NCBI RefSeq assembly: GCF_000027125.1
Contig: NC_017626.1
Direction: 5' to 3' (one strand)
DNA from: Escherichia coli 042
GTDB lineage: Bacteria > Pseudomonadota > Gammaproteobacteria > Enterobacterales > Enterobacteriaceae
DNA: 64,000 bases
The position numbers and the translations under genes are program-made. The first letter of the stretch is position 1, and every line of letters begins with the position of its first letter. Shown here in pieces: positions 4,424 to 59,672 of this stretch. The notes beneath the pieces are model-generated. The model had not been told where the DNA came from. It did not search any database and was given only the letters and a program-made list of their open reading frames with translations.

Positions 4424-4774
4424 TTATGCCTTCAGTTTTTCATGAAGCTCAATTAATTCAGTAATCAGTTCACGCGCAAGCATGGACGTCATTAAATGAT
4501 CCTGAGCGTGGACCAGCACCAGACTCACTTTCATCTTACCTTCGCCCGCATCGCCTTCAATCAGTTTCGTCTGTACCAGATGCGCTTCATTCAATGCCAT
4601 CCGCGACTGATCCATCATCGCTTTTGCTGCGGCAAAATCGCCCTGCTTCGCCTGTTTCAGTGCCGCATACGCCAAGCTGCGCGCTTGTCCGGAGTTGATG
4701 ATAAGCCCCATCACCACTTCTTCCAGCTCTTCAGCTTCTGTTTGCGTATCGGGAATGTTATCGAGATCCATCAT
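4424..4774 (-). CDS. chbA: PTS chitobiose-specific EIIA component
   Basis: 116 aa ORF, lactose/cellobiose-family EIIA-like, operon position. Confidence 0.9.
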
Positions 4775-17022: not shown

Positions 17023-17039
17023 TTGCAGGGTTCGTGCCA
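17023..17039 (-). promoter_or_regulatory. Sigma-54 promoter (-24/-12) for astCADBE
   Basis: Minus strand reads TGGCACG-AACC-CTGCA, matching the sigma-54 consensus TGGCAC-N5-TTGCW with GG and GC correctly spaced, about 70 bp upstream of the astC start. Confidence 0.6.
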
Positions 17040-53537: not shown

Positions 53538-54284
53538 TCAGAATTTGTAGGTGATCCCGGTAGAAATCAGGCCAGTCCAGGATTTATCCACCATCGGGCT
53601 GTCAGTAACTTCATCAGACAGACGGGTGTAGCGCGCGGTACCGTAAACACTCCAGTCGCCGAGGAAGTTGTAGCTGGCGCTCAGCTCCAGGTAAGGGCTC
53701 CAGCTGTCGTTCGGGTTATAGCCACGCAGACCGCTGCGAGCGGACTCTTTGCGCGATACGCCATAATAGTATTCGTTCTGGTTTTCGCTGTTCCACTGCA
53801 CACCAATACCCGGAGTCACGGTCAGGCCGCCGTTGGTGTAACGATACAACCAGGCCATATCCCAGACAATGCCGTTGCTGTTATCCAGGGTATCGCCAGC
53901 CAGGGTGGTACGCAAGTAACCGTACTGGGTAAAGTGAGCATAAGACAGACCAGCCATCATGGTGCTCTTACGGTCATCCAGGTGACGCATTTGGTGATCG
54001 CCACTGTCTTTAGCTTTGAAGTAAAGCGGCGACCAGTAAGCGGTAATTGAAAGTTTGTCCGTTGCGTCATTCCACAGGTAGTAACCACCACCTAAGCCAC
54101 GGAACCAGAAGTTATCGCCTTCATAGTTGATTACCGGTACTGGGTAAACATCGGTATCGTAATCTTTATATGGGTGTTCAACGACACCTACGCCTGCGCC
54201 CAGGGAAAATTTACCTTCAGCGTGCGCTACGCCTGCAGACGTTGCGATAAGCACTCCAAGTGCCAGAAGTTTGAGTTTGGTCAC
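53538..54284 (-). CDS. mipA: MltA-interacting outer membrane protein
   Basis: 248 aa ORF with signal peptide and beta-barrel-like alternating pattern ending in aromatic residue (TYKF). Confidence 0.9.
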   Translation of the reverse strand: MTKLKLLALGVLIATSAGVAHAEGKFSLGAGVGVVEHPYKDYDTDVYPVPVINYEGDNFWFRGLGGGYYLWNDATDKLSITAYWSPLYFKAKDSGDHQMRHLDDRKSTMMAGLSYAHFTQYGYLRTTLAGDTLDNSNGIVWDMAWLYRYTNGGLTVTPGIGVQWNSENQNEYYYGVSRKESARSGLRGYNPNDSWSPYLELSASYNFLGDWSVYGTARYTRLSDEVTDSPMVDKSWTGLISTGITYKF

Positions 54285-54600
54285 AATTAATCATTCCTTA
54301 AACAAATGTTTAGCGGGCGACAAAGTTTACCCGTCAATACATCGAAACCCAACCTTTTTACGTTTTCATTTTTTAAAGTAACTGTTTAATTTTCCTGACG
54401 CGGATGACACCGCGCTTACAGCCAAATGAATTTAGCGTTACTGGCGACCCTGGTCTTTACATTAATTATGCAAAATTTATGGATGAGTTGTTGATATGCC
54501 ATTGAAATTAAGAAAGCCGTGCAGGCAAGTTTTCCATTTGCCATCTACGCTTAATTTTGAAGGTGTATCACCGGGCACGTTGTTCTCATCGTCGATAAAA

Positions 54601-54616
54601 TGGCATGAGAGTTGCT
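54601..54616 (+). promoter_or_regulatory. Candidate sigma-54 promoter for yeaGH
   Basis: TGGCAT-GAGAG-TTGCT matches the sigma-54 -24/-12 consensus TGGCAC-N5-TTGCW, about 105 bp upstream of the yeaG start. Confidence 0.5.
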
Positions 54617-54719
54617 GTGTTTTAGCAAGAGACGTCGTTCAGTTTACCTCTTCCGGGAGCCTCTACTATTCATATGAACGGCTCTTAACCTGTGCTAAAA
54701 AACGAAAGGACGGCATACC

Positions 54720-56654
54720 ATGAATATATTCGATCACTATCGCCAGCGATATGAAGCTGCCAAGGACGAAGAGTTCACACTGCAGGAGTTTCTTACCACT
54801 TGTCGGCAAGATCGCAGTGCTTATGCCAACGCGGCTGAGCGGCTATTGATGGCTATCGGTGAGCCTGTCATGGTCGATACAGCCCAGGAACCCAGACTTT
54901 CTCGACTCTTTTCTAACCGGGTCATTGCACGTTATCCGGCGTTTGAAGAGTTTTACGGCATGGAAGACGCGATTGAACAGATTGTCTCTTATCTGAAACA
55001 CGCGGCTCAGGGGCTGGAAGAGAAGAAACAAATCCTGTATCTGCTGGGGCCTGTGGGTGGGGGTAAATCATCGCTTGCTGAGCGACTGAAATCATTAATG
55101 CAGCTCGTACCGATTTATGTATTGAGCGCCAACGGTGAGCGTAGCCCGGTCAACGATCATCCGTTCTGTCTTTTCAATCCGCAGGAAGATGCGCAGATTC
55201 TGGAAAAAGAGTATGGCATTCCTCGCCGTTATCTCGGCACCATCATGTCGCCGTGGGCGGCAAAACGCCTGCATGAATTTGGTGGCGATATCACTAAGTT
55301 CCGGGTAGTGAAGGTCTGGCCGTCAATTCTGCAACAAATTGCTATCGCCAAAACGGAACCCGGTGATGAGAACAACCAGGACATCTCCGCGCTGGTTGGG
55401 AAAGTCGATATTCGTAAACTCGAACACTACGCGCAGAATGACCCGGACGCCTACGGCTATTCCGGTGCACTGTGCCGCGCCAACCAGGGGATCATGGAAT
55501 TCGTTGAGATGTTTAAAGCACCGATTAAAGTGCTGCATCCCTTGCTAACCGCCACTCAGGAAGGTAACTACAACGGGACGGAAGGTATCTCCGCCCTGCC
55601 GTTCAACGGGATTATTCTCGCTCACTCGAACGAATCCGAATGGGTCACTTTCCGTAATAACAAAAACAACGAAGCCTTCCTTGATCGTGTTTACATCGTG
55701 AAGGTGCCGTATTGCTTGCGCATTTCCGAAGAGATCAAAATCTACGAGAAATTGCTTAATCACAGTGAATTGACTCACGCCCCCTGCGCCCCTGGCACGC
55801 TGGAAACGCTGTCACGTTTTTCCATTCTTTCGCGCCTTAAAGAGCCAGAAAACTCCAGCATTTATTCAAAGATGCGGGTTTATGATGGCGAAAGTCTGAA
55901 AGACACAGATCCCAAAGCCAAGTCGTATCAGGAATATCGTGACTACGCCGGTGTCGATGAAGGGATGAACGGTCTGTCGACGCGTTTTGCGTTTAAGATC
56001 CTCTCCCGCGTGTTCAACTTCGATCATGTAGAAGTGGCGGCAAACCCGGTTCATCTGTTCTACGTTCTGGAACAACAGATAGAACGCGAGCAGTTCCCGC
56101 AAGAACAGGCGGAACGCTATCTGGAGTTCCTGAAAGGTTACTTGATCCCGAAATATGCCGAGTTTATCGGTAAAGAGATTCAGACTGCGTATCTTGAATC
56201 CTATTCAGAATATGGACAGAACATTTTCGACCGTTATGTTACCTACGCGGATTTCTGGATTCAGGATCAGGAGTATCGCGATCCGGATACCGGGCAGCTG
56301 TTTGATCGCGAGTCTCTTAACGCCGAGCTGGAGAAAATCGAGAAACCGGCGGGGATCAGTAATCCAAAAGATTTCCGCAACGAGATTGTTAACTTCGTAC
56401 TGCGCGCCAGAGCGAATAACAGCGGACGCAATCCGAACTGGACCAGCTATGAAAAACTGCGCACGGTTATTGAGAAGAAAATGTTCTCCAATACCGAGGA
56501 GCTGTTGCCGGTTATTTCGTTTAACGCCAAAACGTCAACCGACGAGCAAAAGAAACACGACGATTTTGTCGACCGTATGATGGAAAAAGGCTACACCCGT
56601 AAACAGGTGCGTTTACTGTGCGAATGGTATTTGCGCGTACGTAAATCGTCTTAA
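54720..56654 (+). CDS. yeaG: PrkA-family serine protein kinase
   Basis: 644 aa ORF with Walker A motif LLGPVGGGKSSLAERL. Confidence 0.9.
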   Translation: MNIFDHYRQRYEAAKDEEFTLQEFLTTCRQDRSAYANAAERLLMAIGEPVMVDTAQEPRLSRLFSNRVIARYPAFEEFYGMEDAIEQIVSYLKHAAQGLEEKKQILYLLGPVGGGKSSLAERLKSLMQLVPIYVLSANGERSPVNDHPFCLFNPQEDAQILEKEYGIPRRYLGTIMSPWAAKRLHEFGGDITKFRVVKVWPSILQQIAIAKTEPGDENNQDISALVGKVDIRKLEHYAQNDPDAYGYSGALCRANQGIMEFVEMFKAPIKVLHPLLTATQEGNYNGTEGISALPFNGIILAHSNESEWVTFRNNKNNEAFLDRVYIVKVPYCLRISEEIKIYEKLLNHSELTHAPCAPGTLETLSRFSILSRLKEPENSSIYSKMRVYDGESLKDTDPKAKSYQEYRDYAGVDEGMNGLSTRFAFKILSRVFNFDHVEVAANPVHLFYVLEQQIEREQFPQEQAERYLEFLKGYLIPKYAEFIGKEIQTAYLESYSEYGQNIFDRYVTYADFWIQDQEYRDPDTGQLFDRESLNAELEKIEKPAGISNPKDFRNEIVNFVLRARANNSGRNPNWTSYEKLRTVIEKKMFSNTEELLPVISFNAKTSTDEQKKHDDFVDRMMEKGYTRKQVRLLCEWYLRVRKSS

Positions 56655-56754
56655 CAACCCTGGCCCGGTACACATGCTACCGGGCCTACAACGACAGCGA
56701 ACCGTGGGCCAGAGAAGCGGCAACACAGGCGTAGCATACAGTTGGCAAATGTAG

Positions 56755-58050
<1,296 letters not shown>

Positions 58051-58196
58051 AACTATCAGCCGGGTCATTATCGCCTGGCTGATTTTTAGCTCACTGTAAA
58101 TTATCTCATTTATTACATACATTAGCTTACAATCGCTTTAAATATGACAGCATAACCTTTACACAATTTAGTTCCAGAAAACAATCATTCGGAAAA

Positions 58197-59672
58197 ATGA
58201 TTCGGTCAACACGTGTTTCCCTGGGGTTATTCTTTAAATATTTTTTATCGTTAACGAAAATTGATCCTGGTCAAAACTATATATCTCTGCCATCAATAAA
58301 ATCCAGCACTCACATTGCTCTCCTTTTTATGGCTTCTATGGGTACACAAAAATTAAAAGCTCAAGGCTTTTTTATTTTCAGCTTATTGCTGACGTTAATT
58401 TTATTTTGCATTACTACCTTATATAACGAAAACACGAATGTAAAACTCATCCCACAGATGAATTACCTGATGGTTGTTGTGGCTTTGTTTTTCCTTAACG
58501 CCGTCATTTTTCTTTTCATGTTAATGAAGTATTTCACTAACAAACAAATTTTACCAACACTCATTTTAAGCCTTGCATTTTTAAGTGGCCTTATCTATTT
58601 AGTTGAAACCATTGTAATTATCCATAAACCAATCAACGGCAGTACACTGATCCAGACAAAGTCGAATGATGTTTCTATTTTCTATATTTTCCGCCAACTC
58701 AGTTTCATTTGTTTAACCTCGCTGGCGCTCTTTTGTTATGGGAAAGACAACATCCTTGACAACAATAAGAAAAAAACTGGCATTCTGTTACTGGCGCTGA
58801 TTCCTTTTTTAGTTTTTCCCCTTCTGGCACACAATCTGAGCAGTTATAACGCTGACTATTCTTTGTATGTCGTCGATTACTGTCCGGACAACCATACTGC
58901 GACCTGGGGAATCAACTATACAAAAATATTGGTTTGTCTGTGGGCATTTTTACTGTTCTTTATTATCATGCGTACACGATTAGCCAGCGAACTATGGCCG
59001 TTAATAGCATTATTATGTCTGGCATCGCTATGCTGCAACTTACTTCTACTAACTCTGGATGAGTATAATTACACCATCTGGTATATCAGTCGCGGGATTG
59101 AAGTCTCCAGTAAACTGTTTGTTGTGTCTTTTCTGATTTATAACATTTTTCAGGAACTGCAACTCTCCAGCAAACTGGCAGTTCATGATGTGCTGACCAA
59201 TATTTATAATCGGCGCTACTTTTTCAACAGCGTAGAGTCATTATTGTCGCGACCTGTTGTTAAGGACTTCTGTGTCATGCTGGTTGATATTAATCAGTTC
59301 AAACGCATCAATGCCCAATGGGGACATCGTGTGGGTGATAAAGTGCTGGTTTCAATTGTCGATATTATCCAGCAAAGCATCCGCCCCGATGATATTTTAG
59401 CGCGACTGGAGGGTGAGGTGTTTGGCTTGCTATTTACCGAACTCAATAGTGCCCAGGCAAAAATCATTGCGGAACGTATGCGTAAAAATGTCGAACTCCT
59501 GACCGGCTTTAGTAACAGATATGATGTTCCTGAGCAAATGACCATCAGTATTGGCACGGTTTTTTCAACGGGTGACACACGTAATATCTCGCTTGTCATG
59601 ACGGAAGCAGATAAAGCCTTACGCGAAGCGAAAAGCGAGGGGGGCAACAAAGTGATTATTCATCATATTTAA
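58197..59672 (+). CDS. yeaI: Membrane-anchored degenerate GGDEF-domain protein
   Basis: 491 aa ORF; hydrophobic N-terminal half; C-terminal GGDEF-type domain in which the signature reads EGEVF (ARLEGEVFGLLF); notably AT-rich gene. Confidence 0.85.
   Translation: MIRSTRVSLGLFFKYFLSLTKIDPGQNYISLPSIKSSTHIALLFMASMGTQKLKAQGFFIFSLLLTLILFCITTLYNENTNVKLIPQMNYLMVVVALFFLNAVIFLFMLMKYFTNKQILPTLILSLAFLSGLIYLVETIVIIHKPINGSTLIQTKSNDVSIFYIFRQLSFICLTSLALFCYGKDNILDNNKKKTGILLLALIPFLVFPLLAHNLSSYNADYSLYVVDYCPDNHTATWGINYTKILVCLWAFLLFFIIMRTRLASELWPLIALLCLASLCCNLLLLTLDEYNYTIWYISRGIEVSSKLFVVSFLIYNIFQELQLSSKLAVHDVLTNIYNRRYFFNSVESLLSRPVVKDFCVMLVDINQFKRINAQWGHRVGDKVLVSIVDIIQQSIRPDDILARLEGEVFGLLFTELNSAQAKIIAERMRKNVELLTGFSNRYDVPEQMTISIGTVFSTGDTRNISLVMTEADKALREAKSEGGNKVIIHHI

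Follow-up and report, generated by a model that had tools for sequence, protein, structure and literature searches.

The sigma-54 promoter of yeaG-yeaH revisited in Escherichia coli 042: conservation of a published promoter, a probable sigma-S element upstream and a REP-like hairpin inside the operon

The closest described counterpart of the region considered here is the yeaGH promoter of Escherichia coli K-12 and Salmonella Typhimurium (OS18; STM1285), which is in fact the same locus. In E. coli, Bonocora et al. reported a sigma-54 ChIP-seq peak, OS18, with the motif ATGGCATGAGAGTTGCT, and listed it for yeaG at 'distance 93' (PMC4591121); when that study appeared, the yeaG sigma-54 promoter had the status 'predicted' only in EcoCyc. 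In Salmonella, Samuels et al. found by ChIP-chip that sigma-54 is bound at TGGCATGAGAGTTGCTTT upstream of yeaG, where the core is unchanged, with NtrC as the assigned activator (PMC3844500). Brown et al. observed an NtrC ChIP-seq peak at yeaGH together with an RNA polymerase ChIP-seq signal at the promoter (PMC4066584), and upon nitrogen run-out yeaG mRNA was found to rise 36-fold within 20 min (PMC4664914). A 2018 review places yeaGH in the NtrC regulon and describes two adjacent promoters, one dependent on sigma-54 and the other on sigma-38, so that the rpoS dependence of yeaG is on record as well (PMC6299236). Regulation by SdsR and an RNA 3' end belonging to yeaG have likewise been demonstrated by others. 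Our search of the literature, which included the promoter name (yeaGp), found no promoter-mutation or start-site mapping study of yeaG. Since the literature already covers the promoter, its control by NtrC and the part that the operon plays in survival of nitrogen starvation, finding the yeaG-yeaH sigma-54 promoter again is a rediscovery that contains nothing new and adds little. The first-pass annotation, made from the sequence, had missed this earlier work, and also missed the adjoining sigma-S promoter and the REP-like nature of the hairpin between the two genes. What we demonstrate here is the exact motif with its phylogenetic footprint, how stable and conserved the hairpin is, and which protein families are encoded. 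The remaining value of the analysis is descriptive, in that it depicts a sigma-54 promoter which looks lineage-restricted, has no recognizable canonical NtrC enhancer and is followed by a conserved REP-like hairpin at a mapped RNA 3' end.

Beyond its own locus, yeaGH is best compared with the classical NtrC promoters glnAp2, glnHp2, nac and astC. It shares with them the -24/-12 architecture, activation upon nitrogen limitation and NtrC occupancy in ChIP. It is unlike them in having no recognizable high-affinity NtrC palindrome upstream and in being accompanied by a probable sigma-S promoter arranged in tandem, about 68 nt upstream.

The window, by which we mean the whole 64-kb (64,000-nucleotide) stretch of the E. 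coli 042 chromosome that was analysed, carries the annotated genes mipA (-), yeaG (+), yeaH (+) and cdgI (+) in this order. All positions given below and in Table 1 refer to the window; those published for K-12 were converted by subtracting 1,812,188 from the NC_000913.3 coordinate. Of 5426 complete E. coli genomes, 5425 contain a match to the mipA-yeaG intergenic region, with 95-100% identity. Over the 441 nt from the start of mipA to the start of yeaG, the window differs from K-12 MG1655 in a single base (54448), which is far from the sigma-54 motif, and the yeaGH promoter region itself is identical in the two strains; one more difference, C vs T at 56677, is found at the top of the hairpin that follows yeaG. 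The first-pass annotation had described the gene pair as a PrkA-family kinase and its DUF444 partner, and the Pfam matches of YeaG (AAA_PrkA and PrkA) and YeaH (DUF444) bear this out. In the literature, yeaG and yeaH are handled as a single operon, and both YeaG and YeaH are up in a delta-sdsR strain (PMC10954441). The terminator-like hairpin directly after yeaH (-17.8 kcal/mol, z = -4.7) is likely to be the end of the yeaGH operon.

Table 1. Features of the yeaG-yeaH region, in window coordinates
Feature	Position	Strand	Description
Conserved upstream block GATGAGTTGTTGATATGCCATTGAAA	54481..54506	+	alignment, from Escherichia to Serratia, Dickeya and Edwardsiella
Putative sigma-S-type extended -10, TCTACGCTTAA	54544..54554	+	hexamer TACGCT at 54546-54551; consensus fit, conservation
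Sigma-54 promoter core TGGCAT-N5-TTGCT, TGGCATGAGAGTTGCT	54601..54616	+	exact match, conservation, published ChIP
Sigma-54 transcription start, inferred	54627	+	about 12 nt after the -12 GC; gives a 93-nt 5'UTR
SdsR sRNA pairing site CCTGTGCTAA, published	54689..54698	+	yeaG 5'UTR, -31 to -22 (PMC10954441)
yeaG	54720..56654	+	644 aa; AAA_PrkA and PrkA C-terminal domain (Pfam)
Intercistronic REP-like hairpin	56662..56686	+	9-bp stem, 7-nt loop, no U tract
Published yeaG RNA 3' end	56691..56693	+	NC_000913.3 1868879-1868881; 5-7 nt after the stem
yeaH	56767..58050	+	427 aa; DUF444 (Pfam)
Intrinsic-terminator-like hairpin with TTTTT	58055..58088	+	directly after yeaH; 11-bp stem (hairpin 58055-58083), then T run

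The core of the sigma-54 promoter is spelled TGGCAT-GAGAG-TTGCT, with the -24 GG at 54602-54603 and the -12 GC at 54614-54615. Its GG-N10-GC spacing is canonical, and all 11 specified positions of TGGCAC-N5-TTGCW fit if Y and W are allowed. The motif is intergenic, lying between mipA and yeaG on the same strand as yeaG, and ends 104 nt before the ATG (54720), in agreement with the earlier placement of such a motif about 105 bp upstream of the gene; the corresponding 17-mer of the window, ATGGCATGAGAGTTGCT, is that of the published OS18 peak. No other exact match to TGGCAY-N5-TTGCW is present in the 64-kb window. Shuffled windows, for their part, are expected to contain 0.41 such matches per 64 kb, and at least one was found in 34 of 100 shuffles. 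The bare motif is therefore suggestive but not significant on its own, and going by these figures alone it could be a functionless chance match. Its significance comes from its conservation across species.

To describe this conservation, we collected yeaG loci representing 80 gammaproteobacterial species and scanned the 400 nt 5' of each gene. Among the 33 Enterobacterales loci, 24 carry an exact copy of the motif on the sense strand, 94-242 nt ahead of the yeaG ATG. Among the genera that have it are Escherichia, Citrobacter, Pseudescherichia, Pluralibacter, Superficieibacter, Enterobacter and Kosakonia, and further Erwinia, Serratia, Brenneria, Rahnella, Pantoea, Dickeya and Tatumella. There is not a single match on the opposite strand of the yeaG upstream regions of these 33 loci, nor on either strand of the remaining locus sequence (about 699 kb), which served as the control. 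When the upstream regions are aligned, TGGCA and GTTGCT never change, whereas the spacer (GAGAG, AAGGG, GAGGG, AATGG, ACAGG or ACGGG) and the flanks vary. An invariant core within variable surroundings is what selection acting on the -24 and -12 elements would be expected to leave. Together with the occupancy by sigma-54 in vivo in two species, this conservation and the empty control refute the idea of a chance match, which we consider to have virtually no probability left. The same body of evidence upholds the earlier claim that a sigma-54 promoter is present here: sigma-54 occupies it in both E. coli (PMC4591121) and Salmonella (PMC3844500). The companion claim of control by nitrogen starvation is likewise borne out, by the NtrC ChIP peak (PMC4066584), the 36-fold induction (PMC4664914) and the assignment to the NtrC regulon (PMC6299236).

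Outside this group the motif disappears. It was found in none of the 47 loci from Vibrionales, Alteromonadales and Aeromonadales (L033-L081; Vibrio, Shewanella, Aeromonas, Alteromonas), and among the Enterobacterales it is missing from Yersinia (L024, L029), Edwardsiella (L032), Pantoea symbionts (L030/L031), L013 and L015, among others. Since Yersinia, Edwardsiella and some Pantoea symbionts do without it, sigma-54 control of yeaG is not universal. Judging by the distribution of the motif, this control looks lineage-restricted and confined to a part of the Enterobacterales. Nitrogen control of yeaGH therefore gives the impression of having been added, in a particular lineage, to an older promoter of the sigma-S type.

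A site that is bound is not necessarily a site that works. Many of the sigma-54 sites detected by ChIP-seq are not obviously productive (PMC4591121), and the one at yeaG might be of this kind, in which case induction would be indirect: NtrC, which activates relA, would raise ppGpp, and sigma-S would act on the sigma-S promoter located upstream. Several observations in Salmonella agree with such a route. Published reads reveal a very strong rpoS dependence of yeaG (5730 vs 26), which extends to its 5' non-coding region. The rpoN-dependent effect on yeaG (STM1285) in microarrays is just 2.5-fold, and a yeaG promoter-reporter fusion is as active in delta-rpoN as in the wild type, that is, not rpoN-dependent; the latter result was explained by additional sigma-54-independent promoters (PMC3844500). 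The 2.5-fold effect, however, was obtained in strain LT2, in which rpoS is defective, using a constitutive enhancer-binding protein (PMC3844500), and some rpoN-dependent expression therefore persists where the sigma-S route is impaired. An indirect effect also sits poorly with a core retained in 24 species in the right orientation and at the right distance while its spacer and flanks vary, with an NtrC ChIP signal on the yeaGH promoter itself (PMC4066584) and with a 36-fold induction reached within 20 min of nitrogen run-out (PMC4664914). On balance, we regard a non-productive site as very unlikely.

One further point in favour of an indirect route is that no canonical NtrC site emerged from our scan. 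Searching with the NtrC consensus (at least 8 of the 12 positions of TGCACC-N5-GGTGCA), we found no site in E. coli between -300 and +90 of the motif, and in the other species none at a conserved position; consequently, no canonical enhancer is recognizable by sequence. The published NtrC ChIP-seq interval of 80 bp corresponds to 54609-54689 in the window and overlaps the yeaG promoter itself. The NtrC peaks of astC, ddpX and nac likewise overlap their own sigma-54 motifs, and the yeaG peak thus does not locate an upstream enhancer. The alignment does reveal an upstream block (Table 1) conserved throughout the Enterobacterales, which is kept even in Edwardsiella, a genus without the sigma-54 motif, and which contains ATTGA-N6-ATTGA. 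Inside the block, an IHF-like site with one mismatch may be read on the minus strand at 54484-54496. The IHF consensus, however, has 78 matches in the whole window vs 68 expected, which is not above chance, so that the putative site is only a lead and is statistically meaningless alone. As a separate observation, the window contains a second NtrC/sigma-54 promoter, TGGCACGAACCCTGCA, at 17024-17039 on the minus strand, where astC is annotated. Its sequence is that of the astC sigma-54 promoter published as site OS17 (PMC4591121), and it was missed by the exact TTGCW pattern.

The putative sigma-S-type element, TCTACGCTTAA, is kept in the Enterobacteriaceae, where it precedes the sigma-54 motif by a nearly constant 56-60 nt (47 nt in E. 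albertii). The element fits KCTAYRCTTAA, the extended sigma-S -10 consensus, including the C at -13 and the TAA discriminator. A generic sigma-70 scan did not flag this -10 element, and the sites that it did report were no more numerous than in shuffled sequence. In the literature that we searched, a mapped position of a sigma-S promoter at 54544-54554 was not found in print. To judge from its fit and conservation, the element probably corresponds to the adjacent sigma-38 promoter of the literature, for which a start near 54559 would be predicted. A sigma-S start at this place would be upstream of the sigma-54 site, and sigma-S transcripts would therefore traverse the sigma-54 binding site, some 42 nt downstream of the predicted start.

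As for the sigma-54 start, the position that we infer from the -12 element (Table 1) agrees both with the 'distance 93' of the ChIP-seq study (PMC4591121) and with the -93 start of a published construct (PMC10954441). In the latter work, McQuail et al. took the yeaG 5'UTR from -93 and described pairing of SdsR at -31 to -22 from the AUG (PMC10954441). The SdsR site sits in the block CCTGTGCTAAAAAACGAAAGGACGGC, the most conserved one of the 5'UTR in our alignment. Folding of a 96-nt 5'UTR yielded no unusual structure (z = -0.05).

Taking these observations together, we are highly confident that 54601-54616 is best explained as the RpoN -24/-12 promoter of the yeaGH operon, operating within a four-part mechanism. 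The sigma-54 holoenzyme would sit on the promoter as a closed complex until nitrogen runs out, when phosphorylated NtrC would remodel this complex in an ATP-dependent manner and transcription would start near 54627, producing a 93-nt 5'UTR. In stationary phase and under other stresses, yeaGH would be driven by the sigma-S promoter (-10 hexamer at 54546-54551), which lies about 68 nt upstream of 54627. Late in starvation, translation would be lowered through the SdsR site in the 5'UTR. Transcription would pass the REP-like hairpin into yeaH and stop at the U-tract terminator after this gene, while the hairpin would set a stable 3' end of a yeaG-only RNA, most likely by holding up 3'-to-5' exonucleases and/or by serving as a weak point of termination. 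A 3' end defined in this way could uncouple the levels of YeaG and YeaH.

It is tempting to go further and to view the tandem layout as regulatory in itself. The closed sigma-54 complex might then act as a roadblock or gate on sigma-S transcription when nitrogen is plentiful, NtrC might activate without a canonical upstream enhancer, either from solution or via 54481-54506, and the hairpin might set the ratio of YeaG to YeaH. This extended scheme agrees with the arrangement of the sites and its conservation; we regard it as improbable.

The hairpin between yeaG and yeaH, GGCCCGGTA / CACATGC / TACCGGGCC, begins 7 nt past the stop codon of yeaG and folds with -18 kcal/mol (z = -3.6), a stability reached by none of 200 shuffles. 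The 121-nt yeaG-yeaH gap as a whole is not unusually structured (z = -0.4), and only the local hairpin stands out; an Rfam scan of 54200-58300 (E <= 1) returned no RNA family. Downstream of the stem, TACAACGACAG contains no T run, and the hairpin, which is followed by UACAACGACAG and not by a U tract, does not qualify as an intrinsic terminator. This is what the first-pass annotation had noticed when it reported a hairpin lacking a U tract between the two genes. Across 10 Enterobacteriaceae, the stem keeps its six outer pairs (GCCCGG/CCGGGC) unchanged, and its seventh pair covaries, UA vs CG.

In several respects the hairpin resembles REP/BIME elements. It is a GC-rich, extragenic, imperfect palindrome, GGCCCGGTA...TACCGGGCCTAC, with a tail of the GGCCTAC type, it follows closely on a stop codon within an operon, and it coincides with a stable 3' end of the upstream mRNA. 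The 3' tail, CCGGGCCTAC, is kept in 8 of the 10 Enterobacteriaceae, and there is one copy of this type of tail within the 64-kb window. Behind the tail, an inverted canonical REP, GTAGGCCGGATAAG...CATCCGGC, is found in another E. coli strain, in Citrobacter, Pseudescherichia and Pluralibacter and in strain RIT691, so that in these strains and species the hairpin is paired as in a BIME. In the window strain and K-12, this second REP (56695-56735) has decayed through the deletion of about 12 nt, and the K-12 annotation lists no REP among its features at the hairpin. The hairpin departs from the REP pattern also in its stem, GCCCGGTA. The E. coli REP stem types are GCCGGATG or GCCTGATG, and the yeaGH stem matches neither. 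The gap is polymorphic within E. coli: in strain SCPM-O-B-8794 (L003 4470-4530) the hairpin is followed by an intact canonical REP, GTAGGCCGGATAAGCGAAGCGCATCCGGCA.

Published RNA 3' ends coincide with the hairpin. In the Term-seq data of Adams et al., an end was recorded at 1868879/1868880 in two of three growth conditions (PMC7815308), which, going by their position in the supplementary file, appear to be LB OD 2.0 and M63. In the TRS data, a 3' end peak is present at 1868881 and classed as 'alternative primary in TU' (PMC10687069). The first-pass annotation had proposed that yeaG and yeaH are co-transcribed, with possible attenuation at the hairpin. Co-transcription agrees with the treatment of the genes as one operon in the literature. 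Attenuation fits a 3' end located after the stem, yet termination and trimming by exonucleases are not separated by the 3'-end data. A true attenuator, that is, a partial terminator rather than a passive REP remnant or exonuclease barrier, would be consistent with a stable GC-rich stem, with two datasets that place RNA 3' ends 5-6 nt beyond it and with the recurrence of unrelated hairpins in the yeaG-yeaH gap of many lineages, one of which, in Edwardsiella, has a T run. On the other hand, the U tract is absent, the supplementary data of PMC7815308 list no Rho-termination region at the hairpin on the yeaG strand, and a 3' end a few nucleotides past the stem is the product expected from exonuclease trimming (PMC7815308). 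Moreover, a mobile REP/BIME origin is suggested by the CCGGGCCTAC tail and by the inverted canonical REP next to it in other strains, and many species have a gap of just 17-40 nt with no hairpin in it. We therefore find a true attenuator doubtful, and a barrier to exonucleases the more likely role. According to the best reading of these data, yeaG and yeaH are co-transcribed and the hairpin defines the 3' end of a yeaG-only RNA.

Some minor observations on the region may be added. A 75-aa ORF (54496-54723, plus strand) overlaps the promoter and the 5'UTR. It has no Pfam match, and because it spans a region with indels between species, we rejected it as a gene. In Salmonella 14028, a hypothetical gene, STM14_1559, is annotated in yeaG's 5' non-coding region and is rpoS-dependent; probably, this region and the ORF represent merely a long sigma-S 5'UTR and no gene. 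In E. coli 266917_2 (L001 5441-7374, NZ_CP026723.1), yeaG is annotated as a frameshifted pseudogene, and its promoter region is 100% identical. The yeaG-yeaH gap, in turn, is variable in other lineages, which have either unrelated hairpins or short gaps with none. In Edwardsiella hoshinae (L032 4433-4491) it holds a terminator-like hairpin with a T run, GGGGCGGCGTTTAGCCGCCCTTTT, unlike that of E. coli, and in Vibrio sp. UCD-FRSSP16_30 (L056, about 4470-4530) the gap extends to 229 nt and includes a tandem array of a 9-nt unit, TAATTTTAG.
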